From Candidatus Kuenenbacteria bacterium (GTDB lineage Bacteria; Patescibacteriota; Patescibacteriia; UBA11705; JABHMO01), in assembly GCA_013202715.1 (NCBI GenBank), contig JABMRF010000007.1, positions 72,566 through 136,565 of the forward strand: 64,000 bases of DNA. The letters are read 5' to 3'. Positions 40,601 through 63,280 of this stretch are shown here, one piece after another. Position numbers and translations under genes: made by a program. Every line of letters starts with the position of its first letter. Position 1 is the stretch's first letter. The notes beneath the pieces were generated by a model, which saw nothing but the letters and a program-made list of their open reading frames with translations, had not been told where the DNA came from and did not search any database.

Positions 40601-43600
40601 ATAGAGTTTAGCGAACCAATTGATACCAATAGTGTTAATAAAGGAGCTTTTAATTTGTACTCTGTCAGTGGCGGTGTTTATACAGATGTAACCAGTACTT
40701 CTATTGTGGATGCTATATTGAGTTCAAATAAGTTATATGTAATTATGGACATTAATGGTACTTTGCCTGTTGGTGAATATGAAATAAGAGTCAAGGGTGG
40801 AGTCAGATCAATGTCAGGCATTACACTCGGCGATCCAAATAATCCGGGAAATGATCATTACATGTCAAATTTTACTGTTACCAATACAACTGATGTAACT
40901 GCCCCTACAATGAATGGTAGTTGGCCTGAAAATAATGATATGTCAGTACCAATGGACTTTGGCTTTATTGATATAGGATTTGCTGAAGCATTGGATCCAA
41001 CTAATATTAACACTACAAATGTCACTTTGAAAACTGGAACATCAACTGTGCCGACCAATGTTGAATACGATGCGATGAGACAGTCAATCAAAATTATACC
41101 TACTACCGGTTTGACTCCAGGTGTAGCATATACTGCAACTATTAGTTTTGGCGCTTCTGCCATTCAAGATTTAGCAGGATTACCCATGGATCTATCTGGA
41201 CTTCTACTCACATTCAAAATGACTACAACGGCAGATAGTACTCAGCCTGTGCTTGAGTTTGCGAATTGTGATAGCTATAGTTGTGCAATCACTTTTAATA
41301 AAGGCATGAGCGCACTCAAGCAAAGTGAAGCTTCATCAAACGCTAACCTTTGGACTGGCAGTGTGAGAAATCCGGCCAACTATGCTTTGACTTTTGGTCC
41401 AGGTGGAACTGATACCGTAGAAAGTCTTACGGCCAGTGGTGTGTCCTTTAATTATGAATATGATACCAATACCGTATTGGTTGAAGGATTATCATTTACA
41501 GGCTTAAATGCAGATACAGATAAATTTGTTTTAACAGTAACCAATGTATTAGATCTTTCAAATAATCCAATCAACACTAGTGCCAATACAGCCGGTGGAT
41601 ATATTATGGATTCATCCAAGTCCGGCGGTATGATGGGACCTGGTGGTGGTGGATTTATGGGAGGTGGTATGATGGGTGGCGGAATAATGACCGGTGGCCC
41701 AAGCGGATTTGGTGGATTTGGTGCCAAAGAAGCTATGATGATGGGCGCAGGTGTGATGCCAATGAATATGACAGCCGGCGCAACTACTACATACTTTATT
41801 GACTTCCCTATGCCTCCATCAGGTGGAACTGCTAATAAACTTGATGATGGTTCATATTTTAAATTGACCTTTCCAAAGGGAACTACTTTGACTGGTGCAA
41901 TTCCAGATCCATACAATCCAAGTAAGACTGATCTTAATATGAATGGTGATGCAGTGGTTGTTCTGTCTGAATCTGGAATCGCTGCAGATTCAGTTGCTGC
42001 AACTCAGGCTGGTGCTATCAATGATGGAGTTACAGTTTCAGGTCAAACTATGACCTTGTGGTTAGATACAAATAGCGGAACAACTAGTGATCCAGATATG
42101 TTCCACTTTGAAGTCAAGGGCATTGTAAATCCAAAGGCTCAGGATTTTAATTCTTCAGGATATACAGTAGATATGAAAGCATATAATAGTGGCGGTACAT
42201 TGATAGAATCTATGACTTCTATGCCGTACTTTATAAATGCCGCGGGGTCAAATAATATTACGATTAATGTAACTGCTGAAGATGGTCTTGGTGATATGAC
42301 TTTGATGATGGGATCACCAATGTCCGGTCCAATGGACGCAGATGTATCTCTCATGGCTGGTGTGGGAACTCAAACTTGGTCAAATTTGAATGATGGTTGT
42401 TATCATATTTTTACTGAGCCAACAATTACTCTTGGTATATATAAATATTCAGGTCAGATGAATCCGGAACCGATTTGTTTGCCGGGTTCCGGCGCAAACT
42501 GGACTGAAGCTACGAGTACATTAACCAAAGCACTTACCTTTACAAAACGTAGCGCTGCTAATTCAGCTCAGCTAGCAGTATTAGTCAGTGGTACCTTTGC
42601 AGACGCCGGTGAAGACGTAGATATTTTTGCTTTTGGCCCAAATGGTGGAACCGTTGAAACTGTGACTTTTGGCGGTGAAGTTGTAAATAATTCCACTACC
42701 CTCTTTCTTCCATCCAATGGTGATTACAATATTGGTATCGGTCCGGCAATGCCAAAGGGTCCGATGGCCGGTCCCCCACCAATGCCTGATTGGATGCCAC
42801 CTATGACAACTGCGATCACTGTCAGTGGTGTCGGTGGAACTCCGGTAATTAAACGAAACGACACCAATGCTACTATTACTGAATTACCTATATCAATTAC
42901 CAGCGCTACAAAAGAAATTCGTGGACTGGTGGTCTCCAAGGGAACAACTATAGGTGCAAGTTATACTGCAGCTGCGACAAGTCTAACCTTAACCAGTGGA
43001 AGTGGCTTTGCGGAAAATGACTTTATTTATATATCTGATGGAACAAATACCGCTACTGATAAGATTCTGTCTATCAGTGGTACAACTGTGCAATTAACCA
43101 GTGGAATGGGTACATCCTTTGCTTCTGGTAGCGCAGTCTATAACATCATTCCTGACACTGAATTATGGGCTAATCAGCCAATGGGCTTTGGTGGTATGGG
43201 ATCTCACGCAACTTCACAAGCTGATGGTTCATTTGTGTTAAAAGTTGCTTCAAATGGTACTTATGATATTGGTGCTTGGAAGTCAGGAATTGGTGATGCT
43301 CCTTCTAGTTCGGCAACTGTCAAAGATAATAATGGTGGTACAGTAGATGGAAATAGTACAGCCGACGTTAAGGTTAATGGAGCTAACATTACTACTGTAA
43401 ACCCGTTCCTAATAAAAATAGGTAGACCAGATTATGTAATCTCTGGGCGAGCTATTGATTCCAGTAATAATCCAATGCAATATACTCATGTGATGGCAGA
43501 AGAAACTACAACTCGCCAAATGGCACATTCAAATACAGATTCAGATGGTGATTATATCCTCAATGTTAGTGCAGGTACCTGGAGTATTCAGGTAGATACA

Positions 43601-50438: not shown

Positions 50439-50571
50439 CTGTATCAATTGGTTCTTTGAAAAATCGCTTGAGTACAACAGAAAGACCTTATTTACAATTA
50501 TCTATTGTATGTAGCGTCTTTTTGTTGTGTCGAGAGTCAACAATTTTTCAAAACCTTAATTGGAGGAAAGC

Positions 50572-52281
50572 ATGAAGAACGGAGAAAAGACGCTGAATGG
50601 AATCGTTGGTCTGTACAAGGAGTTTGGTCCCGACCTTCCGGTCGTGACCATCCAGGGAGTGCAGGTTGTCCGTCTGCCCAGCACCGTGACGGTGCTGGCG
50701 GACATGAAGGACGAGACGGTCCTCCAGCCCCTCAACCAGGCGAGGATTTTCCACGCCACTGACAGGCAGGGACAGTTTTTCCTGCTCCTCACCGAGGATG
50801 GCGCTGCCAAGATGGCATCGCTCATCGCAGAGGACCGGAACACCCGGGGTGAGGTTCTGACCGTGGCCGACGGCTACACCAAGTTCGTCACCTACACGGT
50901 GGCCATGGCAGCGGCAGCCGCCGCAGCCAAAGCCAAGAAGGCGGCAGCGGAAGCCAAGTCCCAGGCCAAGGCAGCAGCCACAGCCAAGCGGCTCGAGTCT
51001 TACAAGCTCATGGACCTGATCCGGTTCGGGCAGAGGGACTGCGTCCTCCTGCCCTCGGACGAGGTGGCGGAGATCCCGCTGCTAAAGGTCAAGCCCCTCC
51101 TGGGGACCATGGCTTCGTTCGTGAGGACCAAGCTGGAGGCAGTGGCCGAGCAGTACGAGGCCGACTACTCAACAGCTATCGCCGAGGCGCAGAAGGACAA
51201 GCCCTTCGCGCACGGCGGAGAGCTGGTCGACTGGGAGCGGGAGTTCCGTGCCCAGTGGGCTGACAAGAATGGCAAGTCCGCCCCGACGATGTGGGGTATG
51301 ACGGTTCTTCTCAGAAACTTCGACGATTACGGCGAGTTCGCCATGATCATCCGGTCGGATGACAAGGAGGCCATTCTGGGTCTCACCGGTTCGAGGTTGA
51401 TCTCTATGGGCGAGCCCATGCACTGGAGGCTCCGGAAGAAGTACTTCTTCGATCCGCGCGCAAAGGCGGCAGAAGAGGCGCGGAAGCTGGAGGCCAAGCT
51501 GGCTCGGGAAGCCAGGGCCAAGGAATCAGCGGAAAAGCTGCAGACCAAGGTCGAGGCCATGAAGGCCACCGGCAAGAACTTCCACACGTGTCAGGGCGAT
51601 ACCGTCTGGACACCTGTGGAATCCTTCGTGCGGATGTCCATGGACGATCTCGTCGTCTGCCCCGTCCTGGGGGAGATGAGCGAGGATGACGTCCTGGCCT
51701 GTATGGACGAGAAGTTCGTCGATGCGTACGAGTCCGCTCTGGACCAGGCGCAGAAGGCCGGCCCTCTCGGCGTGAAGGACTACTTCTCGTTCGAGGGGAA
51801 GTTCCGGAACGAGTATGCGAAGTCCAGCGGTGGTGCCACTCCCGGACTGGCGGACTTCGTCGTGGTGACGCGATACTTCCGTCGGGAAGGCGTGTGTTGC
51901 GCGGTCGTTCACAGGGACGATCTCGCGGCATTCAAGGCCATCGCGGGCAAGGGGACGAACCCCAACACCCGGGAGACCTACGAAGTTCCTCTTCGGGATC
52001 ACAGTGATCCCTTCTGGTGGATGCTCCGAAAGGAGCACTTCTTCGATCCCCTTTCCCAGCGAAAGGATCAGGAGAGGCAGGCAGAAGAAGAGGTCGTCGC
52101 GGTCCGGAAAGAACAGACGTTCGACCAGATGGGTGATCTCATCGGCGCTGAGCGACTGAAGGAGATGCGCGCATCGTTGGCTTCGGCCGACGAGGTCATC
52201 GATGATCACAAGTCTGCCGGCCGGCAGAAGTGGGACCGCCGGAAGAACGGTGGCGGCAAGAACCGCGGCAAGCGCGGCTAG
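50572..52281 (+). CDS. Hypothetical protein of foreign composition (~60% GC) with internal duplication, poly-Ala/Lys segments and a K/R/G-rich tail
   Basis: GGAGGA RBS; repeated P(M/F)xW(R/M)LRK(K/E)(Y/H)FFDP motif at two positions; AMAAAAAAAKAKKAAAEAK; C-terminal KWDRRKNGGGKNRGKRG. Confidence 0.6.
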   Translation: MKNGEKTLNGIVGLYKEFGPDLPVVTIQGVQVVRLPSTVTVLADMKDETVLQPLNQARIFHATDRQGQFFLLLTEDGAAKMASLIAEDRNTRGEVLTVADGYTKFVTYTVAMAAAAAAAKAKKAAAEAKSQAKAAATAKRLESYKLMDLIRFGQRDCVLLPSDEVAEIPLLKVKPLLGTMASFVRTKLEAVAEQYEADYSTAIAEAQKDKPFAHGGELVDWEREFRAQWADKNGKSAPTMWGMTVLLRNFDDYGEFAMIIRSDDKEAILGLTGSRLISMGEPMHWRLRKKYFFDPRAKAAEEARKLEAKLAREARAKESAEKLQTKVEAMKATGKNFHTCQGDTVWTPVESFVRMSMDDLVVCPVLGEMSEDDVLACMDEKFVDAYESALDQAQKAGPLGVKDYFSFEGKFRNEYAKSSGGATPGLADFVVVTRYFRREGVCCAVVHRDDLAAFKAIAGKGTNPNTRETYEVPLRDHSDPFWWMLRKEHFFDPLSQRKDQERQAEEEVVAVRKEQTFDQMGDLIGAERLKEMRASLASADEVIDDHKSAGRQKWDRRKNGGGKNRGKRG

Positions 52282-52325
52282 CTACCCAAACCTACCTAGG
52301 GACGTCCGTCCCAAAAGTCCCCCCC

Positions 52326-52360
52326 GCACTCGGGGGGGACATTTTTTTTGTCCGGATTTA
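52326..52360 (+). terminator. Rho-independent terminator (C7/G7 stem)
   Basis: gtccccccc gcactc gggggggac + TTTTTTTT. Confidence 0.85.
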
Positions 52361-52545: not shown

Positions 52546-52611
52546 ACTAAGAAAAAGGACATGTTCGTTAAATTTGAGCCCCATGTTGCTAATTTGACTA
52601 GAGGAGGCTTG

Positions 52612-53286
52612 ATGATAAGGGTAAGTAAATCAAACTTGGTTTCGCCAATAAGCGATGCGTTTTGGCCGGTGTTTTTCTCAAGTGAATTGATTGTTCGTTT
52701 CGTTGCTCAGGCAGTTTGTTTTGCCTTGTGCGATAAAAAGAAAAAACCACAATTGATTTTTGTTTATCCATATGAAGGGTCTTCGAGTCGACCGACCGCT
52801 GGTCAGCTTTTGCAAGTTTTTCAGAACTGCAAAGATCCTTGGCGAGAGTTTAGACCATTTGCTCTGCCGGTAAAAATGTCTGACCTTCTCGATCTGACCG
52901 GCGTGAATATTGAATGTGTCCAGGATGATTCGCGAGAAGTGGTTATTCTGTATGCGAACAAACAACCGAAGGATGAAATTGATTTCTCTGATTCGATGCT
53001 TGTTAGCGGGTATGCAAAGGCCGATCTTATTGATATGAGATCGTGGCCAGAAAACCCGGAAGAATATACGGTTCATTCTGCGGGATTTGAACCTGATGGA
53101 TGGAACTCTGAACATTACAGGCTTTTCGTAGAAAACTACGTTGTTCAAGGGGATCATATTTGCAGGATTCTCGCCTTAGCCAGAATTGGCTGTGAGGTTG
53201 AACTCTCCCCCACTGTGCGTATCAACGCCAGGTCCAAGATCATGATTAACCCTCCAATCAAAGACGAACATCGAATTGTTCACTAG
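52612..53286 (+). CDS. Hypothetical protein (~45% GC)
   Basis: GGAGG RBS 6 nt upstream of the ATG at 52612; 224 aa; no motif. Confidence 0.45.
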   Translation: MIRVSKSNLVSPISDAFWPVFFSSELIVRFVAQAVCFALCDKKKKPQLIFVYPYEGSSSRPTAGQLLQVFQNCKDPWREFRPFALPVKMSDLLDLTGVNIECVQDDSREVVILYANKQPKDEIDFSDSMLVSGYAKADLIDMRSWPENPEEYTVHSAGFEPDGWNSEHYRLFVENYVVQGDHICRILALARIGCEVELSPTVRINARSKIMINPPIKDEHRIVH

Positions 53287-53336: not shown

Positions 53337-54533
53337 CTATAAGTGTGCAATAATCTTTTTTGCGAATTCTTGACGGTGTGGATGAATGAATTGTAATATT
53401 TCATCTTTGCTCACCCACTTGATTTCCTCAACCTCTTCTGAATCTGAAAAGTCAATGTTTGAATCCTTACCTTGGAACTCCAACAGAAAGGCGGTTTGTT
53501 CTTGGCCTTTGAAACCTTTTAAAAGATTTTGATATTCAGCTGGATTGTCGTATCTGTGTTGTTCTGGGATTTTTTTTATTAATTTAAATAATTTTTCTGA
53601 CGCCCCAACCTCTTCGCTTGATTCTCGAACTACCGCTGTTTCTGGGGTTTCTTCTTGGTCAACTCCGCCTTGAGGAAATTGCCAATGATTTTTTCCAAAG
53701 CGTGGGTTTCTTATTATTAAAAATTTCCCTTCTTTGTTTTTAGTTACTCCAATGACATTTTGCCTGTATTCTGACTGAATTCTTTTTTTCCATTTGTGAC
53801 AAACAAGTAAGAAATCAGCTGTGGCGTTTTTGATTCGTTTCAATCGGCTTGGTTCCTGATAAAGTCGATAGGCCCATTCCAATCCCGAATCGCGAACAAG
53901 TTTTGGCGCTCGCTTGATTTTTTCTGTCAGAAAATCAATACTTCCACCTATTCCAATTGCGACTTTTACACCTGGAATTAGTTTTATATATTTGTTGATC
54001 CAAAACTCTTGTGCCGGCGCGCCCAAAGTTACAAATAGTATTTTTGGTCCAAAGGTATTGATAGAATTTAAAACTTCATCACAATTGTCTGGGTTTTTTA
54101 TGTCGATCTGGCTGATTTGGAAGTTTAGTTTTGGATATTTTTCCTTGAATAGTTTTTTTATGTCAGCTTCAGTGGACAGGGAGTCGTTTCTTAGAACGAT
54201 GAAGACTTTAGTTTCTGTATCTTTATATTTTTCCAAAATTTCTTTTGTTAAGTCTGAGCCTGCCACCCTGTTCTCGAGAGTTTCACCCAGAATCTTGGCG
54301 CCAAGTTTCAAACCGATCCCGTCAGGGATGTTTATATCGGCTCGATTCAAAACGTGTCGGTACTCATCATCTTTTTCCGCTTTTAGGCAGATTTCTGGAT
54401 TTGGAGTATATATTTTGTGCTGGTCATTGGAATTTAAAAATTGGTCAATTTTTTGTAATACAAAATCCATTGGCTGGTCGGTGATTTGAACGCCGAGGAT
54501 AATTGATTTGTTTTGGAACTCGGGAGGACGCAT
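53337..54533 (-). CDS. Fusion protein: WecG/TagA/CpsF-family glycosyltransferase (N-terminal) plus NUDIX hydrolase (C-terminal)
   Basis: N-terminal half matches WecB/TagA/CpsF-type glycosyltransferases (TPNPEICLKAEKDDEYRHVLNRADINIPDGIGL). C-terminal Nudix box GGVDQEETPETAVVRESSEEVG. Confidence 0.7.
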   Translation of the reverse strand: MRPPEFQNKSIILGVQITDQPMDFVLQKIDQFLNSNDQHKIYTPNPEICLKAEKDDEYRHVLNRADINIPDGIGLKLGAKILGETLENRVAGSDLTKEILEKYKDTETKVFIVLRNDSLSTEADIKKLFKEKYPKLNFQISQIDIKNPDNCDEVLNSINTFGPKILFVTLGAPAQEFWINKYIKLIPGVKVAIGIGGSIDFLTEKIKRAPKLVRDSGLEWAYRLYQEPSRLKRIKNATADFLLVCHKWKKRIQSEYRQNVIGVTKNKEGKFLIIRNPRFGKNHWQFPQGGVDQEETPETAVVRESSEEVGASEKLFKLIKKIPEQHRYDNPAEYQNLLKGFKGQEQTAFLLEFQGKDSNIDFSDSEEVEEIKWVSKDEILQFIHPHRQEFAKKIIAHL

Positions 54534-54624
54534 ATAGAAAAATAATTTCTACCCCACTTTCTGCGATCGCCGTAATTTTATATGAAGGCGATAGTGGGCT
54601 CACTAATGCTACCAGTTGAGCTGA

Positions 54625-55170
54625 CTAGAAGTCAGGCGGAAATTTTTTTAAAATTGAATAAATTGGGCCGGCTGGGGTAAGGTCGCTCTTTATAAGTTCA
54701 ATGGATTTCACCGTAAAGGAGAGTGCCTCAGTTTCCACTTGGTATCGAAGTTTGGCGCTGGCAGTTTTGATTCGTCCTAAAGTGATATGTGGCAAGAACG
54801 GACGATTGTCCACCTCAAGACCATTTTTTTGAAAAATATCTTTTACCGCTTCATGAATTTTTTTAAGTTTTTTTTCTGGGTCTAATATCTTAATTTTAAT
54901 TACCCGAGGTTTTTCTTTATTTGGGAATGATCCCGGCCTCTCAAGCGTCAAAATTAAATTCTCCGGAACACTAATGGATTCTAGATCTGTCTTTATCTTG
55001 TTTAGGGCTGCCTCTTTAATATTTTCAATAAAACCCAGAGTCAAGTGCAGATTCTCTGGCTCGACCCACTTGATGTTGACCCTCTGGTTTTCTTTGTCAA
55101 TTTTAAAAATAAGATCTTCGAGGTAATCCTGGACTTCTTTCGGTAAATTTATAGCTAGAAATGCTCGCAT
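54625..55170 (-). CDS. thpR: RNA 2',3'-cyclic phosphodiesterase (2H family, ThpR/LigT)
   Basis: Two H-x-T-x motifs (HLTLGFI; HITLGRI) at the correct spacing; 181 aa. Confidence 0.75.
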   Translation of the reverse strand: MRAFLAINLPKEVQDYLEDLIFKIDKENQRVNIKWVEPENLHLTLGFIENIKEAALNKIKTDLESISVPENLILTLERPGSFPNKEKPRVIKIKILDPEKKLKKIHEAVKDIFQKNGLEVDNRPFLPHITLGRIKTASAKLRYQVETEALSFTVKSIELIKSDLTPAGPIYSILKKFPPDF

Positions 55171-55215
55171 AATGTGATTGAATAATAGCATATTATCTGG
55201 TAAAATGGAAGTGAA

Positions 55216-55293: not shown

Positions 55294-56172
55294 ATGAAAG
55301 AAGCACTACTTTATACAAAGGAATCAAATAGGATCGTTCACTGCCTTTGCTGTGAGCATCATTGTGTTATTCGGAATGGTGCCGTGGGTGTTTGTAATGT
55401 TCGGAAAAATGAGGATGGTAAACTGTACAGTTTAGTTTACGGAAAAATAATTGCTCAGCATGTGGATCCGATTGAAAAAAAGCCACTCTATCATTTTCTA
55501 AAAGGTTCACTCACCTATTCGATCGCCACAGTTGGTTGTAATTTCAAATGTAAGCATTGTCAAAATGCGGACATTGCGCAGTTCAGGGAGCACGTTGGTG
55601 AGGAGGACTGGATTCCCGGCGCTCTATTAAAGCCTGTTGATATTGTCCGATTTGCCGGGGAAAATAACTGCGAGAGCATTGCCTATACTTATACAGAGCC
55701 AACGATATTTGTCCAGTTTGCGCTCGAAACAATGAAGCTGGCGCGCCAAGCTGGATTGAAAAATGTTTGGGTGTCAAACGGATACTTTTCAAATGATACT
55801 TTTGAATTGATAAAATATTATTTGGATGCGATTAATATTGATCTTAAGTTTTTCAATGACCTGACTTACAAACAGATTTGCGGGGCGAAGTTGGAGCCGG
55901 TTTTGCGAAGCATCCGCTCGTGTGTTGCAAATAATATTCACACTGAAGTTACAACTCTTGTGATTCCTGGGATGAACGACAGCAATACTGAGCTTCATCG
56001 GATTGCAGATTTTCTGTACAATGTTGACCCGGAAATTGTTTGGCATTTGTCCGCATTTTACCCTGCGAGTGAAATGAAGGATGTTTCCCCTACTTCGATC
56101 GGAACTCTGAACCGAGCCTTGAAAATTGGCTTAGCCGCAGGCCTGAAAAACGTGTATTTAGGGAATGTTTAG
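55294..56172 (+). CDS. Radical SAM enzyme of the AmmeMemoRadiSam / PflA-like activase type
   Basis: CNFKCKHCQN (CxxxCxxC); upstream DPIEKKPLYHF and an N-terminal Cys-rich segment (HCLCCEHHCVIRNGAVGVC), characteristic of the AmmeMemoRadiSam-system radical SAM family. Confidence 0.65.
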   Translation: MKEALLYTKESNRIVHCLCCEHHCVIRNGAVGVCNVRKNEDGKLYSLVYGKIIAQHVDPIEKKPLYHFLKGSLTYSIATVGCNFKCKHCQNADIAQFREHVGEEDWIPGALLKPVDIVRFAGENNCESIAYTYTEPTIFVQFALETMKLARQAGLKNVWVSNGYFSNDTFELIKYYLDAINIDLKFFNDLTYKQICGAKLEPVLRSIRSCVANNIHTEVTTLVIPGMNDSNTELHRIADFLYNVDPEIVWHLSAFYPASEMKDVSPTSIGTLNRALKIGLAAGLKNVYLGNV

Positions 56173-56177
56173 TTTGT

Positions 56178-56203
56178 AGGTAAAATGTAAAAGTTAAAAG
56201 TAT
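56178..56203. repeat. 26-nt post-stop direct repeat AGGTAAAATGTAAAAGTTAAAAGTAT (copy 1)
   Basis: Recurs at 58949-58982 directly after the clpB stop. Confidence 0.7.
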
Positions 56204-56231
56204 GGACCCTGGAATGGGTTTTTAAAAATAC

Positions 56232-56259
56232 TTGACAAATTTCTAATTTCTTATATACT
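56232..56259 (+). promoter_or_regulatory. Promoter TTGACA-16-TATACT for clpB
   Basis: Consensus -35; about 70-nt leader. Confidence 0.5.
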
Positions 56260-56332
56260 GGGGTTGGCACTCTCTACTTCCGACTGCCAATATTACTATC
56301 AACTTTTACATAATAACTTTTACCTAATTTCT

Positions 56333-58954
56333 ATGGATATCAGAAAATTCACTACAAATTCACAACAAGCTCTTCAATCAGCGCAAGCGCTTGCTTTTGA
56401 GTACAAGCATTCACAAATTGATACAATTCATTTGCTTTGTGCACTACTTGAACAAGATGAAAGTATTGTTTTGACCGTATTAAAAAAACTGGAACTTCCT
56501 GTCGAGCAAATGATTCAGCAGGTCAAATCTATTTTGCATAAATTTCCAAAGGGCCGAACTCCTAGCGCTGCTGGCGGTCAAGTTGCCGTGACTCCGCCAA
56601 TGAATTATGTTTTGGTTAATTCGGAAAAAGAATCCAAGAAGCTGGGCGATGAATTTGTAAGTACAGAACATTTATTGCTGTCACTTTTGAAAGTTGACTC
56701 CCCTGCTTCTGAACTTCTGAAAATGTTTAATGTTGATTATGATACAGTTTTGAAAATTCTCTCTGATGTGCGCGGTGATGAAAAAGTTGACTCCCCTGAC
56801 CCAGAAAACAAAAGGGATGTTTTGGATAAGTTTACCATGAACTTGACTCAGGAAGCGCGGGAAGAAAAATTAGATCCAATTATCGGGCGAGACGACGAAG
56901 TTCGACGAATTTTACAAGTACTTTCTCGAAGAACAAAAAACAATCCAGTTTTAATTGGAGAACCTGGCGTTGGAAAAACTGCAATCGCCGAAGGATTGGC
57001 TCAGCGTATTGTTTCCGGCGATGTTCCGGAAAATCTTAAGAACAAGGAAGTTTTAAGTTTGGATATTGGCTCTCTTGTGGCCGGATCAAAATTTCGTGGT
57101 GAATTTGAAGAAAGAATGAAGGCTGTCTTGAAAGAAATTCAAAAGAACAAAGACAAATACATCATATTTATAGATGAATTGCATACAATTGTTGGAGCAG
57201 GCTCAATCGAAGGCTCACTGGACGCTTCAAATATGCTCAAGCCAGCGCTTGCTCGTGGAAATTTGAGATGTGTTGGCGCTACAACATTAAAAGAATATCA
57301 AAAATATATCGAAAAAGACGCCGCACTGGAGCGAAGATTTCAGCCCGTGATGGTATTGGAGCCTGATTTGGATGATACAATTGCAATCCTTCGTGGAATC
57401 AAGGAAAAATATGAAGTCCACCATGGTGTGCGCATTACAGATGATGCAGTTGTGGCAGCAGCAAAACTTTCTCAGAAATATATTACCGACCGATTTTTGC
57501 CTGACAAAGCTATTGACCTTGTTGACGAAGCAACATCAGCTCTTCGAATTGAGCTGAACAGTATGCCGATCGAGCTGGATCAATTGAAACGTAAGATTAT
57601 GAAATTGGAAATTGAAAAGCAAGCCATTGCCAGAGAAAAAACTGACACAGCAAAGGCAAAGCTGAGTGGCATCGACAAAGAATTAGAGGAACACAAGGAA
57701 AAAGCAAATCAACTCGAAATTCATTGGAAAAAGGAAAAAGAATTGATTGAGCAAATTCAATCTGCAAAAAAAGATATTGATAAATTAAAACAAGAAGCGG
57801 AAATTTTGGAAAGAAAAGCCGAATATGACCGAGTCGCGGAAATCCGTTACGGAACAATCCCTGAACTTGAGAAAAAGATCAAAAGTCTTCAAGCTCGTTT
57901 TCGAAAAGTGCAGTCAGGTCCTGGTGGTCGGAAAATTTTAAAAGAAGAAGTAACTGAAGAAGATATTGCTAGCGTAGTCTCAATGTGGACAGGCATTCCT
58001 GTTACAAAGATGCTACAAAGCGAAATAGAAAAATTGGCGCATGCGGAAGACGAGCTTGCCACTCGAGTAATTGGTCAGAAAAAATCAATTGCCTCGGTTG
58101 CCAATGCACTTCGTCGTTCCCGGGCTGGATTGTCAGAAGAAAATCGACCAATTGGTTCATTCCTCTTCCTCGGTCCGACCGGAGTTGGTAAGACTGAGCT
58201 GGCAAAATCGCTTGCTGAGTTTATGTTCAATAGTGAAGAAGCAATTATTCGCGTCGATATGTCTGAATACATGGAAAAGCATTCAGTTTCAAAGCTGATT
58301 GGATCTCCTCCAGGATACATTGGTCACGATGAAGGTGGGCAGTTAACTGAACGCGTTCGTCGGCGTCCTTATTCAGTAATCTTGTTCGATGAAATCGAAA
58401 AAGCTCATCCAGAAGTTTTCAATTCTCTATTGCAAATCTTGGACGACGGCAGGCTGACTGATTCAAAGGGCCGAACCGTTAATTTCAAAAATACAATTAT
58501 CATCATGACATCAAATATCGGCTCAGATACAATTCTGGATGCGATTAATAAATCTGATCTTGGCTTTGGAAATCAGGAAGCAAGTCAAAAAGAATCAATT
58601 GACAAAAAAATCCTTGGTCGCCTAAAAGAGCATTTCCGTCCTGAGTTTCTAAATCGAATTGATGAGATTATGATTTTTGATGCTTTGAATAAAAAAGAAC
58701 TGCGAAAAATTGTTGACCTTCAGCTGGAAATTGTTGGTAAACGTTTGGAAGAAAAAGAAATTCAGATCAAATTTAGCTCAGAAGTTAAAGATATGTTGGC
58801 GGAAAAGGGCTATGATCCACAGTTTGGAGCTCGGCCACTAAAACGATTGATTCAAACGATGATTCTCGATGAGCTTGCTTTGCAGATTATCGAAGGAAAG
58901 ACTAAGAGTAAAGTTAGCGTTGAGCTTTCGAAAGGAAAAGTAGTCTTTAGGTAA
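56333..58954 (+). CDS. clpB: ClpB disaggregase (two AAA+ modules, middle coiled coil)
   Basis: Two Walker A boxes (GEPGVGKT; GPTGVGKT); M-domain coiled coil; N-terminal Clp_N repeats. Confidence 0.95.
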
Positions 58955-58982
58955 AATGTAAAATGTAAAAGTTAAAAGTATA
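58949..58982. repeat. Post-stop direct repeat (copy 2, with an extra AAATGT unit)
   Basis: aggtaaaatgtaaaatgtaaaagttaaaagtat overlapping the clpB stop. Confidence 0.7.
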
Positions 58983-59065
58983 TAACAAAGGAGCTTGGAA
59001 AAAGCTCTTTTGTATTTGAATTAACGAGTCTTGCTAAAATTCCTCTTTTCCATTATAATTACAGT

Positions 59066-60436
59066 ATGCGAAATACAAAAAAGATCGTAATTTTTACTTT
59101 AATTTTAGGTTTGATTTTTCCTTTTCAAACCGTTTTTGCGGTTGATTTTAACAATGGCTATATAATTTCAGATCAGGATTTAGTGAATTCAAGTGCCATG
59201 ACTTTGGGCGAAATTCAGAATTTTTTAGATAGACGAAACGGGACACTTGATACTTATACAGCAATCGATGATGATGGAGAAATAATAACAGCAGCGGAAA
59301 TTATTTTTAATGCATCTGTTGAGCATGTTATCAATCCAAAGTTTTTGTTGGTCATGTTGCAAAAAGAACAAAGCCTGGTTGAAGATTCTTCACCAACTCA
59401 AAAACAGTATGATTGGGCAATGGGTTATGGAATTTGTGACAGTTGTGATATGGATGACCCGAGTCTTTTGAAATTCAAGGGGTTTGCAAATCAAGTTGAT
59501 AATACTGCCGGAGCAAACCGTTGGTACATTGATACCGAAGAAAACTGGATCAAACGTCCCGGCAATACATATGAAATTGATGGTGAGCAGGTCAATATTA
59601 TGAATCAAGCCACCGCCAATCTATATAACTTCACTCCTCATATTCACGGAAATTATAATTTTTGGAAAATCTGGAATCGCTGGTTCAATCAAAGTTATCC
59701 GGACGGATCATTGTTGCAAGGCGAAGGAGAACAAGGTGTTTGGTTGATAGACAATGGAATGCGCCGTCCTTTTCATTCGAAAAGTGCACTGGTTTCACGT
59801 TATGATCTAGATAATATTATTATTGTCAGCAAAAATGAAATAGATAAATATGAAATCGGTCGGGCGATTAAATTTGCAAATTATTCCCTTTTACAAATCC
59901 CAACTGAAGATGTTTATTTATTAGTAAATGACGAGCTTCGCAAGTTCGAATCAAAAGAAGTTCTGCGCACACTTGGATTTAATCCGGAAGAATATGAGCA
60001 GCTCAGCCTTGTAGACTTTGAGGAGTATGAACTTGGTGAACAGATCACAATGACAAGCGCGTACCCTGCTGGCGGATTGCTTCAGGATAATACTACTGGA
60101 GGAGTTTTCTTTGTTCAGGATGGACATAAATACGCGATTATTACCAAAGACATTTTTGAAATAAATTATCCAAACTACACCTTGACTTCAGTCACACCGG
60201 AAGAGTTGAGTAAATTTCCACGTTGGGGTGAAGTTCGACTGAAAAACGGAATTATTGTAAAGTCAGTTGAGTCACCTATTGTCTACGTTATTTCAAATGA
60301 AAAAAAGCGTCCTATTGTCTCTGCTGATGTTTACGAGCGACTTGGCTATAAATGGGAAAACATTAAAGTTGTAAGTGAGAAAAGTTTGTCGAACATGCCA
60401 CTGGGCAGTGCGGTGGATCTGGACTTTAAGAAATAA
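59066..60436 (+). CDS. Secreted hypothetical protein with four ~45-aa C-terminal tandem repeats
   Basis: Signal peptide MRNTKKIVIFTLILGLIFPFQTVFA; four repeats starting WLIDNGMRRPF, YLLVNDELRKF, FFVQDGHKYAI and VYVISNEKKRPI. Confidence 0.55.
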   Translation: MRNTKKIVIFTLILGLIFPFQTVFAVDFNNGYIISDQDLVNSSAMTLGEIQNFLDRRNGTLDTYTAIDDDGEIITAAEIIFNASVEHVINPKFLLVMLQKEQSLVEDSSPTQKQYDWAMGYGICDSCDMDDPSLLKFKGFANQVDNTAGANRWYIDTEENWIKRPGNTYEIDGEQVNIMNQATANLYNFTPHIHGNYNFWKIWNRWFNQSYPDGSLLQGEGEQGVWLIDNGMRRPFHSKSALVSRYDLDNIIIVSKNEIDKYEIGRAIKFANYSLLQIPTEDVYLLVNDELRKFESKEVLRTLGFNPEEYEQLSLVDFEEYELGEQITMTSAYPAGGLLQDNTTGGVFFVQDGHKYAIITKDIFEINYPNYTLTSVTPEELSKFPRWGEVRLKNGIIVKSVESPIVYVISNEKKRPIVSADVYERLGYKWENIKVVSEKSLSNMPLGSAVDLDFKK

Positions 60437-60438
60437 AT

Positions 60439-60530
60439 ATAACGCGAATGTCACTAATTTTAACGCGAATATCGCGAATCGCGAATGTTGCGAATAATAA
60501 TATTCGTGTTATTCGCGATTTGCCGTTCGG
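60439..60530. repeat. (C/T)GCGAAT repeat array with inverted ATTCGC units, upstream of the LigB-like gene
   Basis: aacgcgaatg...taacgcgaatatcgcgaatcgcgaatgttgcgaataataatattcgtgttattcgcgat. Confidence 0.7.
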
Positions 60531-60586
60531 CCACGAGCTCACGGCCGAGTGGCGTCATTCGCATATGTTCATATTCGTGTAAATCT

Positions 60587-61375
60587 ATGCTCACCTTTGC
60601 GGCCATTGTGCCTCATCCACCGGTCTTGATTCCAAGTATCGGTAAAGAAAATATAGATAAATTAAAAAAAACCATTAGTGCTTTGGATATTCTTGAGGAA
60701 GAATTAAATCAAGCGAATCCTGATACTATAATTGTGATTTCTCCGCATGGCGAAATTAATTTTGAAGCATTTACAGTTAATACTAATGAAAAATATACAG
60801 CAAGATTTGAAAATTTTGGCGATTTTACAACCAAGCTGGAATTTAAATCAGATCTGGGATTTATAAATCAGCTAAAAGCGACAAATGAAACAAAATTACC
60901 GGTCCAACTGATTTCACAAGAAAATCTTGATCATGGTGTGTCGGTCCCCCTTTATTACTTGACTCGAAAAAATCAAGATCGCAGAATTGTGCCGATCAAT
61001 TATAGTTTTTTGAATTTTAATAAACATTTAGAGTTTGGCGAATTGATAAAAGAAGCCATTTTTTCTTCAGACAAAAGAGTTGCAATTATTGCTTCCGGAG
61101 ATCTATCACACAAGTTGAGTTTGCGAGCGCCAGCAGGATTTTCTCCACACGCAAAAGAGTTCGACAAAAAGCTGATTCAGGTTTTGAAAAAGAAAAGTGT
61201 GCAGGGAATTTTGGATATGGATCCGGCCTTTATCGAAGAGGCTGGCGAATGCGGTCTACGCTCATTCCTGATCCTACTTGGAGCGATTAAAAACATGAAA
61301 TATGAATTTGAAGTTTTGAGCTACGAAGCACCGTTTGGGGTTGGCTATTTAGTCGGAGAGTTCAAGTTTGCGTAA
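60587..61375 (+). CDS. LigB/Memo-superfamily (class III extradiol-dioxygenase-like) protein
   Basis: N-terminal AAIVPHPPV (LigB-type metal His), VISPHGE, and ASGDLSHKLS (YgiD/DODA-like S-x-D-L-S-H). Confidence 0.55.
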   Translation: MLTFAAIVPHPPVLIPSIGKENIDKLKKTISALDILEEELNQANPDTIIVISPHGEINFEAFTVNTNEKYTARFENFGDFTTKLEFKSDLGFINQLKATNETKLPVQLISQENLDHGVSVPLYYLTRKNQDRRIVPINYSFLNFNKHLEFGELIKEAIFSSDKRVAIIASGDLSHKLSLRAPAGFSPHAKEFDKKLIQVLKKKSVQGILDMDPAFIEEAGECGLRSFLILLGAIKNMKYEFEVLSYEAPFGVGYLVGEFKFA

Positions 61376-61430
61376 TGCGAATATAGATAAATGCGAATGA
61401 CGCGAATCGCGAATGATGCGAATAAAGAAT
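61371..61430. repeat. (C/T)GCGAAT repeat array downstream of the LigB-like gene
   Basis: gcgtaatgcgaatatagataaatgcgaatgacgcgaatcgcgaatgatgcgaataaag; five units mirroring the upstream array. Confidence 0.7.
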
Positions 61431-61504
61431 AAAAGTACAAATATCGTCTTTTGGGGCGATTTTGTGATTCTAGGGCTTGTTTTTAGGTAAACTTAGTCAA
61501 CCCT

Positions 61505-61533
61505 TTGACAAATCAAGAAAAATCATGTATAAT
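61505..61533 (+). promoter_or_regulatory. Promoter TTGACA-17-TATAAT (TG directly upstream) for the GC-rich CSD-fusion gene
   Basis: ctttgacaaatcaagaaaaatcatgtataatg. Confidence 0.55.
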
Positions 61534-61658
61534 GCTACTTAAACAAGTTCCTTTCAAAGTATCGAAAACTGTGTGTTTCAGTGGACCCCTCCGGGTCTGT
61601 CTGTGGTTAGGGTTTGCATGTGCAAGCCCATCTGTTTGTTAACCGTATGGAGGTAGAG

Positions 61659-63182
61659 ATGACAGTAGATCGAGGAAGTATCGTTTCAGCTGAAGTGCTC
61701 AGAATGCTCATGTCCTCACCGGGCGAAGATGAAGAACTCAGCGGTGAGATTGTCAGCATTGGAGCCAAAGACTTTGCGTTCATTGGGAATGTGAAGGACT
61801 CACGGGGCCGGCCGGTTGATACCGGCGCTGGCGATGTGTTTCTTCACCAGGAGGAACTCCTTGGTGGAAAAATGGAAGTTGGGACGGTCCTGAAGTTCAG
61901 GGTTGTTCCCGATGAGAGGAGACTCGGTAAACTGCGAGCGCTTCAGGCGCACTCAGTCGATCTGGCTCTGGTGCCGGTGAAAAAGGAAGTTGTGTTTCCG
62001 GTGTCAGTCGTTACCGGCGCACAGTCGTTCTACCACGTGCGTGCCAAGAAGATTCTGCCGGAAATCGTTGACCAGGCTGACAACAACAAGCCGTTTGACG
62101 GTGTCTTCCGACCGACTTCCCAGGCAGATGCGATCAAGATTGCGAACCGAGATGTCCTGGCCGACGTGATCAACGTTTGGCTGAAGGCGAGCTTCGCGAT
62201 GTTCGAGAGCTTCGGTGTGAACTTCGATCTGCGCCAGCCAGTGACGGATGAAGAGCGGGACATGATCGAAAAGTACGCCCAGTCGTTTGGCAATGGTGGC
62301 ATGGATGCTGCAGCTCGGAAGCTCAAGCAGCAGTTCGAGACGTTCTTGAACACCAAGGATGTCTTCAACTACCTGTACAATTCAAATCGCCTCCTGCCCC
62401 AGAGCGTACTCAGTGTTGACTACCTGCCTGACATGATGATGGCCGCGCCGGTCTGGTTCGCACGAGGGAAAGAGGAATTCCCCAACAAACAGGATAGACA
62501 CGATCCAATGCCGGACGAGTTTGTTCAGTACATGTGCGGACTGGGCAAAACCCAGCGCATGGCAAACCTGATGCAGCTTTTCAATCGGCGCACACGGCCG
62601 TTTGACATGTATGAGGGAGACGTGATTCCTCCTCATATCTGGGAGACGATCCAGGCCTGCTCAAACAGAGACAACCTGTTGTCAAAGTTCGATTACCTGG
62701 TGATTGCCACTCCGTATCACAACATTGCCAGCAAGGAATGGGCTGATCCCAACTGGCAGGGCATGATTGATCCTTACCTGCTTGCATTCTCAAAGGATGT
62801 GCCTGAATTTTTCTTCGTGCTTGGTCGTTGGAGTGACACGGGGCTTCTGCCGCTAGTTAGCGAGATGACGGCCGATACCGTGAATTTCACGAGAGAGCAC
62901 CTTGAGGGAATTGAGAACTTTTCTCAGCCCTACTGGCACATTGAGGCTGGTGACAAAAAGGATAGTGATCCAGAGGATGATGAAGGGTCTCGGATTGCGG
63001 CTGATGGTACACATTATAATCAGAGTTTAAAAGACGGTGTTCCTGCTCCATATCTCAAGGATGGTTCATTGCCACAATTTGCCAGGGAATTGATCGAGCG
63101 TTTCGAAAAGGGTGACCTTTTCCCCTGGCTGACGGATGACACTTACACCGGAGAGCCGGATGAGACGACACCTGAAGGTTAA
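61659..63182 (+). CDS. Hypothetical protein of foreign composition (~58% GC) with an N-terminal cold-shock/S1-like OB domain
   Basis: GGAGGTAG RBS; N-terminal GEIVSIGAKDFAFIGNVKDSRGRPVDTGAGDVFLHQEEL...GTVLKFRVV parallels the CspA fold pattern (GxV..F...KGFGFI......DVFVH...L); about 400 aa of unknown domain follow. Confidence 0.55.
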   Translation: MTVDRGSIVSAEVLRMLMSSPGEDEELSGEIVSIGAKDFAFIGNVKDSRGRPVDTGAGDVFLHQEELLGGKMEVGTVLKFRVVPDERRLGKLRALQAHSVDLALVPVKKEVVFPVSVVTGAQSFYHVRAKKILPEIVDQADNNKPFDGVFRPTSQADAIKIANRDVLADVINVWLKASFAMFESFGVNFDLRQPVTDEERDMIEKYAQSFGNGGMDAAARKLKQQFETFLNTKDVFNYLYNSNRLLPQSVLSVDYLPDMMMAAPVWFARGKEEFPNKQDRHDPMPDEFVQYMCGLGKTQRMANLMQLFNRRTRPFDMYEGDVIPPHIWETIQACSNRDNLLSKFDYLVIATPYHNIASKEWADPNWQGMIDPYLLAFSKDVPEFFFVLGRWSDTGLLPLVSEMTADTVNFTREHLEGIENFSQPYWHIEAGDKKDSDPEDDEGSRIAADGTHYNQSLKDGVPAPYLKDGSLPQFARELIERFEKGDLFPWLTDDTYTGEPDETTPEG

Positions 63183-63194
63183 GTTGTAAAAACA

Positions 63195-63228
63195 GAGCCC
63201 CCCCGCATCGCGGGGGGGCCTTTTTCTT
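63195..63228 (+). terminator. Rho-independent terminator (C7/G7 stem)
   Basis: gcccccccgcatcgcgggggggc + TTTTT; same style as 52326-52360. Confidence 0.85.
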
Positions 63229-63280
63229 CCAAAAAATTGGACTGGATTTTTGTGTAATTTTTGTTATAATACAAGCACCT

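Follow-up and report, generated by a model that had tools for sequence, protein, structure and literature searches.

Two genes in a 64,000-nucleotide stretch of a Candidatus Kuenenbacteria contig (this whole stretch being referred to as the window) probably represent the surviving radical SAM enzyme (rSAM) and LigB-type component (protein B) of the AMMECR1–LigB/Memo–rSAM system, in a lineage which would have lost AMMECR1 (protein A) and in which the remaining pair would still cooperate. Comparison of sequences and loci showed that the two proteins are orthologues of components of this system, and that the 4 kb which separate their genes represent conserved synteny of unrelated genes. The identification of the two proteins is in itself not new, as both names are already present at NCBI, and knowledge of the system dates back to 2007, when AMMECR1 was noted to be associated with, and also fused to, a “ring-opening dioxygenase” (Balaji & Aravind 2007, PMC2034487).

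Radical SAM enzyme and LigB-type protein

The rSAM gene (55294..56172, forward strand) encodes a protein of 292 aa which scores 255 bits with TIGR04337 (cut-off 220), matching positions 8-286 of the 349 positions of this profile, and 70 bits with Pfam Radical_SAM, and which is 100% identical to the NCBI entry “AmmeMemoRadiSam system radical SAM enzyme” of Ca. Kuenenbacteria bacterium. The three features named in the initial annotation were all located in this protein: the CX3CX2C cluster motif CNFKCKHC (C82, C86 and C89), the block DPIEKKPLYHF (residues 58-68, of which DPIEKKP is conserved), and an N-terminal Cys-rich segment corresponding to the four-Cys motif C17-x2-C20-x-H22-x-C24-x9-C34, in which C17, C20, C24 and C34 are invariant in 35 of the 35 rSAMs compared. 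At the sequence level, the product is confirmed as a genuine AmmeMemoRadiSam radical SAM enzyme, as had been proposed. It corresponds to a short form of the family, the C-terminal CxxC...CxxC zinc-ribbon-like tail of the full-length profile (positions ~290-349) being missing, with no remnant of it found 3’ of the stop codon. Of the best 120 rSAM matches, 61 possess the tail and 50 do not, and the tail-less form, which retains all catalytic motifs in these 50 sequences and is also found together with AMMECR1 (locus L040), is a natural short variant rather than a disruption.

The initial annotation had also considered that the protein might score better as a PflA or NrdG activase, an expectation contradicted by the scores obtained with the glycyl-radical activase models PflA (TIGR02493, 64 bits versus a cut-off of 232) and YjjW (TIGR04041, 66 versus 250) and with NrdG (TIGR02495, NrdG2, 41 versus 131), all of which are far below that of TIGR04337. 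These activases have the compact rSAM core in common with the window protein, and PflA, its only sequence relative in the PDB (E 3e-9), is the nearest solved structure, whereas the additional N-terminal four-Cys motif belongs to the window rSAM. No gene for a PFL- or NrdD-type glycyl-radical enzyme was found by Pfam annotation of the ORFs of the window.

The second gene lies within an ORF spanning 60485-61375, the start of which was assigned to the ATG at 60587 in view of the length of close homologues, nearly all of which have 261-263 aa, resulting in a product of 262 aa (60587..61375, forward strand) with a predicted class III extradiol-dioxygenase fold. This protein scores 145 bits with Pfam LigB (PF02900) and 44 bits with Pfam Memo (PF01875, gathering cut-off 27), while its score of 39.9 bits with TIGR04336 has to be read against a very permissive cut-off of 26 and against the higher scores obtained with Pfam LigB and HpaD (65 bits). 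The AF2 model (pLDDT 92) retrieved, by means of Foldseek, TK2203 and HpaD with a TM score of 0.84, LigB with 0.76 and MEMO1 with 0.65-0.69. By sequence and predicted fold, protein B would thus be placed clearly nearer to LigB than to Memo, and the Memo family was rejected as its best assignment; MEMO1 was not matched among PDB sequences by the profile of the LigB-type family even at E<=1. The 2-His-1-Glu site is intact (H10, H54 and E221) and is accompanied by H175 and by C222 beside the Glu, with H10, H54, E221 and H175 being invariant across the family alignment; the segment of E221 aligns with the Fe-ligand Glu motif, and that of H175 with the LSH motif, of both HpaD and aminophenol dioxygenase (APD).

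The best structural match, TK2203 of Thermococcus kodakarensis (PDB 5HEE, Foldseek E 3.6e-21), which we take to be an uncharacterised LigB/Memo-like protein, is also 262 aa in length, but is only 20% identical and does not conserve the E-C-G metal-site motif in the aligned segment. MEMO1 belongs to the same superfamily, and the window protein displays a conserved Cys-Gly at the third metal-ligand position, the Cys of which is presumably equivalent to MEMO1 Cys244, although the fold is more distant and the LigB-type Glu ligand is kept. With class III extradiol dioxygenases (LigB, HpaD/DHPAO 8IQ8, 2-aminophenol 1,6-dioxygenase, DesB and plant 4,5-DOPA dioxygenase) the protein shares the fold (TM 0.76-0.84) and conserves residues corresponding to their 2-His-1-Glu iron ligands and catalytic His, yet identity is 17-21%, the residue after the ligand Glu is an invariant Cys (C222), the partners of the family are rSAM and AMMECR1 rather than aromatic catabolism genes, and the hosts are anaerobes. 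Assignment to a characterised extradiol dioxygenase was rejected, since the scores are below all equivalog cut-offs (65 versus 316 bits for HpaD, TIGR02298; 21-46 versus 286-467 bits for MhpB, gallate dioxygenase and others). Patescibacteria are fermentative anaerobes, and O2-dependent catecholic cleavage by protein B is doubtful given such hosts. The outcome of a dioxygenase devoid of Memo affinity, raised in the initial annotation, was not obtained either, as the Pfam Memo and TIGR04336 scores both exceed their cut-offs.

The assignment as protein B, under which name the protein is already listed at NCBI as an AmmeMemoRadiSam component, is more strongly supported by comparative data than by these HMM scores. 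Outside the Patescibacteria (CPR), AMMECR1 is fused or adjacent to the LigB-type gene in all 33 evaluable loci, with rSAM adjacent in 17 of them. In Chloroflexota and Bacillota such fused or neighbouring genes adjoin a TIGR04337 rSAM, in Acidobacteriota (Pyrinomonadaceae) they have no rSAM within 10 kb, and a LigB–AMMECR1 fusion beside an rSAM was seen in most of 80 metagenomic AMMECR1 loci. The LigB domains of the fusions score 35-41 bits on TIGR04336 and their C-termini 123-136 bits on TIGR04335. The window protein belongs to the same family (36-43% identity, with the motifs AGECGLRS and SYEAPFGVG) and shares with the fusions the catalytic residues and the rSAM family, but stands alone, AMMECR1 being undetected nearby. 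No recurrent fourth gene was found in the orthologue loci of the LigB-type family. Because in other phyla AMMECR1 is fused to, or neighbours, members of this family beside a TIGR04337 rSAM, the window protein is considered a real B partner, and the LigB/Memo-superfamily gene at 60587 holds as the candidate partner that it had been proposed to be.

These data also bear on the explanation that the two genes encode a conventional HpaD- or DODA-like extradiol dioxygenase and a glycyl-radical activase, both unconnected to the AMMECR1 system. HpaD is indeed the best named NCBIfam match of the LigB-like protein, its nearest characterised folds are dioxygenases, and the PDB relatives of the rSAM are PflA only; nevertheless, this explanation is very improbable, being already contradicted by the curated cut-offs, which exclude every dioxygenase equivalog and activase model while TIGR04337 is passed, and by the AMMECR1 fusions of the orthologues, in addition to the absence of a glycyl-radical enzyme from the window and of aromatic catabolism genes nearby according to the window annotation.

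The AMMECR1 position and component states in Patescibacteria

The gene order LigT< rSAM> clpB> X456> LigB> (AMMECR1>) priA> was found in loci L001, L003, L005-L008, L012 and others, the position of AMMECR1, in those Patescibacteria that have it, corresponding in the window to the slot between LigB and priA (61376..63280, forward strand). This slot contains a GCGAAT cluster, a promoter-like site (61505-61533, 12/12) and an orphan high-GC ORF (61614-63182, 522 aa) with no match in Pfam, NCBIfam, PHROG or PADLOC, and no AMMECR1-like remnant was found in it. A tblastn search of the 64 kb window with a CPR AMMECR1 query returned nothing at E<=10, the AMMECR1 profile reached at best 9.5 bits on six-frame ORFs versus a shuffle maximum of 8.1, neither PF01871 nor PF01875 was found by Pfam in the remaining window ORFs of at least 110 aa, and AMMECR1 was not found in the 7 kb beyond the window end. 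The initial statement that no AMMECR1 gene lies between the rSAM and LigB genes therefore stands and extends, by tblastn, profile and Pfam, to the entire window. Protein A (TIGR04335/PF01871), expected beside B and rSAM in the three-gene arrangement, was not found within the window plus 7 kb, that is, in ~71 kb of a 203,828-bp contig of an incomplete genome (a metagenome bin), which includes the conserved slot. Compared to the AmmeMemoRadiSam system (TIGR04335/TIGR04336/TIGR04337), the window thus contains an rSAM passing TIGR04337 and a protein passing TIGR04336, but differs in the lack of protein A in its conserved slot, in the tail-less rSAM (match ending at 286/349), in the separation of the genes by clpB and a cell-wall protein, and in a B component of LigB type rather than Memo type.

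It is rather unlikely that the window is part of an ordinary, dispersed three-component system, with AMMECR1 located elsewhere in the genome beyond the 64 kb and nothing reduced. The extent of contig and bin inspected leaves room for such a gene, further dispersal is conceivable in a cluster which clpB and X456 already interrupt, and in L098 and L032 AMMECR1 and LigB are not directly adjacent but 0.8-1.7 kb apart. Against this, 11 of the 12 CPR AMMECR1 genes seen follow LigB (in L005, L008, L012, L015, L030, L032, L039, L040, L042, L046 and L098), and precede priA where priA is within the locus, while the twelfth, at L090, is cut at its 5’ end with only AMMECR1 and then priA visible; L005 contains all three genes in window-like order, with AMMECR1 directly after LigB. 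Furthermore, no Kuenenbacteria or Falkowbacteria entry, and none on a contig of 203,828 bp, is present among the best 120 AMMECR1 matches, whereas the LigB list contains many, and shared contigs (of 565549, 465936, 126773, 77729, 23772 and 9963 bp) suggest that CPR AMMECR1 matches co-occur with LigB or rSAM matches.

Among deduplicated CPR loci the AMMECR1 slot is filled in 10 and empty in 38. With loci spanning ±10 kb, and absence of rSAM or A denoting absence from the conserved neighbourhood, the deduplicated states comprise A, B and rSAM in nine loci, B and rSAM in 11 (including the window), B alone in 17, and A without rSAM in none. Losses of AMMECR1 and rSAM have occurred repeatedly in Patescibacteria, and the rSAM–LigB pair corresponds to one step in a decay series which recurs and goes on to the state of B alone, rather than to a unique minimal design. 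In a rough NJ tree of the single 262-aa LigB protein, the clade of the window (59-75% LigB identity) is uniformly devoid of A and mostly retains rSAM, showing that both enzymes have been retained intact in the absence of A over deep divergence in this clade.

Cooperation of the two enzymes and a possible order of loss

Another explanation, which is unlikely, is that cooperation has ended, with the LigB-type protein acting alone after the loss of AMMECR1, the rSAM having another target or being in the process of loss, and their proximity reflecting inherited synteny. The 17 CPR loci that retain the LigB-type gene without rSAM in the conserved slot indicate that B can persist alone, the two window genes lie at a distance of 4.4 kb and have separate promoter-like sites, and the window rSAM does not have the zinc-ribbon tail. 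Tight spacing also joins LigB to priA, so co-location in such compact genomes is weak evidence for shared function. However, the LigB residues H10, H54, D115, H147, H175, E221 and C222 are invariant in 10 of 10 loci with AMMECR1 and in 11 of 11 loci with rSAM and no AMMECR1, whereas in the 17 loci with neither, H116 is replaced by Tyr in 10 and E221 by Gln or Ala in five. This drift of the metal site only where rSAM is absent suggests that the canonical activity of B is tied to rSAM. The Cys motifs of rSAM are invariant in the CPR comparison, and the retention of catalytic motifs by the short rSAM, its co-occurrence with AMMECR1 and the retention of rSAM in most of the A-less clade of the window likewise argue against an enzyme being discarded.

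We know of no component of the AMMECR1–LigB/Memo–rSAM system with a known biochemical function. If the pair does keep working together without AMMECR1, the [4Fe-4S]/SAM site of rSAM (C82, C86 and C89) would generate a 5’-deoxyadenosyl radical, which would abstract hydrogen from a substrate, and the LigB-type enzyme would bind the same substrate or the rSAM product at its 2-His-1-Glu metal site (H10, H54 and E221, with H175 and C222) and transform it, a step which in anaerobic hosts need not be O2-dependent ring cleavage. Where AMMECR1 is present, it would play an accessory part, for example as a substrate-presenting or thiol-donating partner, and would not belong to the catalytic core.

The CPR series suggests a dependency order in which A depends on both rSAM and B, rSAM depends on B, and B is the component retained longest. 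A fixed order of decay in Patescibacteria, in which AMMECR1 is lost first, then rSAM and then the LigB metal site, can be put forward tentatively, its reverse state (A without rSAM) never having been seen; outside CPR, 10 loci have A and B with no rSAM inside 10 kb, and the dependency order may therefore not apply generally. If the fixed order were true on complete genomes, AMMECR1 would be a dispensable accessory, and rSAM and the LigB-type iron enzyme would constitute the catalytic core, contradicting the long-standing proposal in which the conserved cysteine of AMMECR1 acts as catalytic centre or as radical acceptor; reconstitution of the reaction could then make use of a naturally occurring minimal system of two proteins, its rSAM being tail-less and 292 aa in length.

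Intervening genes and flanking repeats

As described in the initial annotation, clpB (56333-58954) and a gene for a secreted repeat protein (X456, 59066-60436) lie between the rSAM and LigB genes. Co-transcription of rSAM and LigB is unlikely, since the genes all have intergenic regions of their own and promoter-like sites are located upstream of both clpB and X456. The clpB unit (56232..58954, forward strand, CDS from the ATG at 56333) starts with a promoter-like site (56232-56259, 11/12) followed by an inverted repeat, TTGGCACTC-N9-GACTGCCAA (56264-56290), which we take to be CIRCE-like from general knowledge of the CIRCE consensus. Because of these two sites clpB is, as far as its upstream sequence indicates, a bystander with its own heat-shock-type control; it persists where rSAM is lost (L009, L019 and L056), and rSAM is found without clpB in L011, L021, L025 and L032.

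X456 (59066..60436, forward strand) is a secreted, cell-wall-associated protein of 456 aa with no named domain and no Pfam or NCBIfam match, having a signal-like segment at its N-terminus and about four repeats at its C-terminus. Its family comprises 4,722 representative relatives, the longer of which are fused to Peptidase_S11, PG_binding_1, Amidase_2 or Pkinase; in Patescibacteria X456 is conserved as the upstream neighbour of LigB, and no member of its family was found in the non-CPR clusters. On account of the fusions of its relatives to peptidoglycan enzymes, it was judged to be a bystander. On the other side of rSAM, and transcribed divergently from it, lies the gene for an RNA 2’,3’-cyclic phosphodiesterase (LigT/ThpR; 54625..55191, reverse strand; TIGR02258 143 bits, cut-off 66), which adjoins rSAM in 12 CPR loci and persists where rSAM is lost (L022, L023 and L031), and is a conserved CPR neighbour by positional association only.

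The initial annotation had assigned to the rSAM and LigB genes a repeat family each, which is correct for LigB but not for rSAM. The 23-mer GTAAAATGTAAAAGTTAAAAGTA is present in exact copies at 56180 and at 58958 and in inverted form at 56294-56327 (none expected by chance), and these copies bracket clpB and not rSAM. Clusters of five to six GCGAAT hexamers are confined to 60444-60511 and 61377-61418, where they flank the LigB gene on both sides.

The radical SAM enzyme and its LigB-type partner

The gene at 55294-56172 (+) specifies a 292-aa protein which contains the motifs CNFKCKHC (C82, C86 and C89) and DPIEKKPLYHF, as well as an N-terminal C-x2-C-x-H-x-C-x9-C segment. The initial annotation had taken it for an enzyme of the AmmeMemoRadiSam type, and this was borne out by HMM searches, in which TIGR04337 returned 255 bits (cut-off 220) and the rival models YjjW, PflA and NrdG2 returned 66, 64 and 41 bits, respectively, all far below their own cut-offs. 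Therefore, the protein is an AmmeMemoRadiSam enzyme (R) and not a glycyl-radical activase. Its match to TIGR04337 ends at profile position 286 of 349, and alignment of the best 120 relatives revealed two natural length classes: a long form of ≈337 aa (61 proteins) ending in a zinc-ribbon-like CxxC…CxxC tail, and a short form of ≈292 aa (50 proteins, that of the window among them) which is devoid of this tail and retains all core motifs. No remnant of the tail was found past the stop codon of the window gene, and the Cys motifs do not vary within any of the groups of loci compared.

The LigB-like gene (60587-61375) encodes a protein of 262 aa, position 60587 being regarded as the true start considering that nearly all close homologues measure 261-263 aa. 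In Pfam it scores 145 bits with LigB and 44 bits with Memo; it reaches 39.9 bits with TIGR04336, for which the cut-off is merely 26, and 65 bits with HpaD against a cut-off of 316. The AF2 model is confident (pLDDT 92) and has TK2203 and HpaD as its nearest folds (TM 0.84), followed by other class III extradiol dioxygenases (TM 0.76-0.83), whereas MEMO1 is more distant (TM 0.65-0.69) and was not matched among PDB sequences by the LigB family profile, even at E<=1. The LigB-type ligands H10, H54 and E221 are kept, together with H175, and the Cys residue directly following the ligand Glu (C222) is invariant. Within the LigB/Memo superfamily, the protein (B) is thus of the LigB type and not Memo proper. 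Both R and B are 100% identical to NCBI proteins of Candidatus Kuenenbacteria bacterium, the window being drawn from a 203,828-bp contig (JGI Ga0335113_11320043), and already bear their family names there, hence the annotation itself is not new.

The LigB-like gene had also been put forward as the only candidate partner of R. This was examined in 80 loci of the LigB family from GTDB species representatives, which were profiled with HMMs built from the search matches to the radical SAM enzyme, LigB and AMMECR1 (A). In all 33 evaluable loci outside the Patescibacteria (CPR), belonging to Chloroflexota, Bacillota, Acidobacteriota and others, AMMECR1 either shares an ORF with LigB as a fusion or is its immediate neighbour, with a TIGR04337 radical SAM gene next door in 17 of them. 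LigB–AMMECR1 fusion proteins score 123-136 bits with TIGR04335 (cut-off 99); of three that were tested, two have an N-terminal LigB domain reaching 35-41 bits with TIGR04336, a range shared with the window protein. A metagenome scan with a CPR AMMECR1 query yielded, among the matches listed, mostly non-CPR AMMECR1 and only L090 and L098 as CPR loci; of the 80 metagenomic AMMECR1 loci among the matches listed, most are LigB–AMMECR1 fusions with an adjacent radical SAM gene. Balaji and Aravind (2007; PMC2034487) had already described AMMECR1 as associated with both a radical SAM enzyme and a 'ring-opening dioxygenase', the dioxygenase also in fused form. The LigB-type protein is therefore the partner of R in this system, and the bacterial protein found here beside AMMECR1 is LigB-type with a full 2-His-1-Glu site, rather than Memo-type, which matters when inferences are transferred to MEMO1. 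No recurrent fourth gene was found in the clusters of the system.

Ten loci outside the CPR carry a LigB–AMMECR1 fusion or adjacent pair with no TIGR04337 gene within 10 kb (L053, L055, L059, L060, L064, L069, L070 and L084-L086). They belong mostly to Acidobacteriota (Pyrinomonadaceae), L053 being from Dehalococcoidia, and differ in this respect from the remaining Chloroflexota and Bacillota loci; either the radical SAM enzyme is encoded elsewhere, or the A–B module works without it.

Absence of AMMECR1 from its conserved position

In the Patescibacteria loci seen to contain it, AMMECR1 follows LigB and directly precedes priA wherever priA falls within the locus (L005, L008, L012, L015, L030, L032, L039, L040, L042, L046 and L098); L090, truncated at its 5' end, shows the AMMECR1–priA part of this order. 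With 140 bits, the protein of L005 is a genuine member of TIGR04335. The corresponding interval of the window is occupied by an orphan ORF of high GC content and by clustered GCGAAT repeats. The lack of an AMMECR1 partner, as noted initially, held in the window and in the 7 kb past it: tblastn with a CPR AMMECR1 query retrieved none in the window, the AMMECR1 profile reached at most 9.5 bits across all six-frame ORFs of the window versus a maximum of 8.1 in 20 shuffled windows, and Pfam searches of every other window ORF of at least 110 aa detected neither AMMECR1 nor Memo. Considering that the visible sequence amounts to ±10 kb per locus and to 71 kb of the genome studied here, absence from the genome as a whole is only inferred, from the conserved slot being empty of AMMECR1. 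The CPR AMMECR1 query returned ≈25 CPR-like sequences among the matches listed, followed by Atribacteria, with no Kuenenbacteria or Falkowbacteria name, nor the contig of the window, among them; the LigB query returned more than 100 close CPR matches among those listed, Kuenenbacteria and Falkowbacteria included.

Two stretches were considered as AMMECR1 remnants. A tblastn match at 28674-28856 (E 0.03) scores 4.0 bits with the profile, which corresponds to noise, and was judged to be due to chance. A 29-residue stretch at 54576-54677 (+; LPVELTRSQAEIFLKLNKLGRL...), scoring 9.5 bits, resembles the N-terminal AMMECR1 region that precedes RGCIG; RGCIG itself is missing, relatives possess no equivalent, and the stretch, which terminates in a stop codon, runs antisense to the 3' end of the LigT gene; the resemblance is probably fortuitous.

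The orphan ORF between LigB and priA (61614-63182, +; orf522) is situated exactly at the AMMECR1 position of relatives and encodes 522 aa at a GC content of 46%, versus ≈38% for the genome. A sigma-70-like promoter with a perfect 12/12 match lies 5' of it (61505-61533), and a G7/C7 hairpin terminator 3' of it (63197-63219). Its product has no match in Pfam, NCBIfam, PHROGs or PADLOC and no homologue in 87 comparison loci; it was found in two JGI samples (L168 and L169), and its N-terminus looks, by eye, like a cold-shock domain. Being lineage-unique, of high GC content and without a family match, orf522 has nothing in support of a role as replacement partner for AMMECR1.

GCGAAT hexamers are clustered on both flanks of LigB (60444-60511 and 61377-61418; 5-6 copies, in part as inverted repeats), the sole other cluster in the 64 kb being one of three hexamers at 14320-14359. 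In relatives, X456 and LigB are separated by 5-27 nt, versus 150 nt in the window. The clusters may represent a set of operators or a repeat insertion specific to this lineage.

A proposed order of loss and the retained pair

Deduplicated CPR loci were sorted by the presence of AMMECR1 (A) and of the radical SAM gene (R), which gave nine A+R+, one A+R?, eleven A-R+ (the window included), seventeen A-R- and ten A-R? loci, and not a single A+R- locus. None of the LigB residues H10, H54, D115, H147, H175, E221 and C222 varies among the 10 A+ or the 11 A-R+ loci. Where the radical SAM gene is lacking (17 loci), the LigB site erodes, H116 being replaced by Tyr in ten and E221 by Gln or Ala in five.

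A neighbour-joining tree of LigB, which is rough as it rests on one short protein, interleaves A+ loci with loci lacking A or R (e.g. L008/L010, L032/L031 and L007/L009), thus implying several independent losses. The clade containing the window (with L003, L001, L007, L009 and L006) is entirely A-, has kept R except in L009, and spans LigB identities of 59-75%. These observations point to an R–B pair that has been kept working long after A disappeared, with the canonical site of B functionally dependent on R. The short form of R was considered as a correlate of AMMECR1 loss; it occurs in 1/9 A+ versus 5/11 A-R+ loci, a difference which is not significant (Fisher p≈0.16), and L040, with a short R and AMMECR1 present, counts against such a link.

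The initial observation is confirmed, and its reading as a reduced two-component version is supported at the level of the locus: the window represents a reduced variant of a known system, without AMMECR1, with a tail-less R and a LigB-type B, and this variant is common in Patescibacteria. A lineage that lacks A and has long kept R and B intact reveals which component is dispensable and which two depend on each other, and the pair would offer biochemists a simpler system of two proteins to reconstitute. The main product is the ordered-loss series, which turns the dispensability of AMMECR1 into a testable claim; the value of the finding is limited because gene loss is common in reduced genomes, the proteins were already annotated, and the absence of AMMECR1 is established at the level of the slot.

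In the mechanism we propose, R would generate a 5'-deoxyadenosyl radical and take a hydrogen from a substrate, the 2-His-1-Glu metal enzyme B would act on the same molecule, and AMMECR1, where present, would be accessory. Conservation of the AMMECR1–Memo/LigB–radical SAM system extends from archaea to humans, and human disease is linked to both AMMECR1 and MEMO1; to our knowledge, neither a substrate nor a reaction is known. For Memo–AMMECR1 systems, Burroughs et al. (2019) reportedly proposed modification of nucleotide bases or isoprenoids. RNA base modification was predicted computationally by Balaji and Aravind (2007; PMC2034487). Our literature search found no experimental characterization of the system, the published predictions being exclusively computational.

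Intervening genes and neighbouring features

The clpB gene and the gene for a secreted protein which had been noted to part R from LigB are located as described, and the gap corresponds to conserved Patescibacteria synteny: WecG-Nudix (-), LigT (-), the radical SAM gene, clpB, the gene for a 456-aa protein (X456), LigB, optionally AMMECR1, priA, def and fmt. This order recurs in relatives whose R is just 54-62% identical; co-location in such compact genomes is weak evidence for a shared function.

The clpB gene starts at ATG 56333 and ends at 58954, the automatically assigned TTG start falling inside a CIRCE-like inverted repeat (TTGGCACTC-N9-GACTGCCAA; 56264-56290) immediately downstream of a promoter-like site (TTGACA-16-TATACT, 11/12 match; 56232-56259). 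This repeat suggests HrcA-type heat-shock control of clpB in a CPR bacterium. With its own promoter-like site and CIRCE-like repeat, a terminator-like hairpin 3' of the gene, and a distribution independent of R (it is kept where R is lost and is missing from several R-bearing loci), clpB is a bystander. Exact 23-mers (GTAAAATGTAAAAGTTAAAAGTA), for which the chance expectation is zero, occur directly 3' of the stop codons of R and clpB (56168-56203 and 58946-58981) and, in inverted orientation, within the leader of clpB (56294-56327). These repeats enclose the promoter–CIRCE–clpB unit, and may be regulatory or a scar left by insertion of a clpB cassette.

X456 (59066-60436) has a signal-like N-terminus and no named Pfam domain, and belongs to a family of 4,722 representative sequences, members of which are found at loci L019, L020, L028 and L033 (ORFs of ≈2.2 kb) and as proteins P0377, P0381, P0392, P0416, P0509 and P0444. 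As its longer relatives carry Peptidase_S11 (D-Ala-D-Ala carboxypeptidase), PG_binding_1, Amidase_2 (MurNAc-L-Ala amidase) or a Ser/Thr kinase as fusion partners, X456 is taken to be secreted and cell-wall-associated, and the family looks like an undescribed peptidoglycan-associated module which is widespread in CPR. Its C-terminal repeat of ≈50 aa matches phrog_9616; a search of PDB sequences gave no match, and the single-sequence AF2 model is unusable (pLDDT 34). The spacing between X456 and LigB is 1-27 nt in most loci, with L032 arranged as rSAM<4>X456<15>LigB. As the spacing from LigB to priA is equally tight, this closeness is attributed to genome compaction and not to a shared pathway. 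A role of X456 as a CPR-specific component or substrate of the system is therefore unlikely, given also the signal-like N-terminus, the fusions to peptidoglycan enzymes and its absence from non-CPR clusters.

A WecG/TagA glycosyltransferase–NUDIX fusion (53337-54533, -) and LigT/ThpR, an RNA 2',3'-cyclic phosphodiesterase (54625-55191, -), are conserved divergent neighbours of R across Patescibacteria (L003, L007, L012, L025, L032 and others). That LigT sits beside a system with a predicted role in RNA modification is suggestive, but LigT is retained where R is lost (L022, L023 and L031).

A second orphan high-GC ORF (50560-52281, +; 573 aa, local GC 54%) is followed by a hairpin (CCCCCCCGCACTCGGGGGGG then a T-run; 52319-52349) near-identical to that 3' of orf522, the two proteins being unrelated by BLASTP (E>4). 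The 573-aa ORF may stem from an insertion of foreign DNA beside gltX, and an orphan ORF of 241 aa follows it (52561-53286). Further features of the window are two tandem PilM-like genes (32358-34795) and a tyrosine recombinase gene (Phage_integrase; 36183-37133, +), which precedes that of a 2,880-aa surface protein with CarboxypepD_reg, Big_5 and lamin-tail domains (37670-46312, +).
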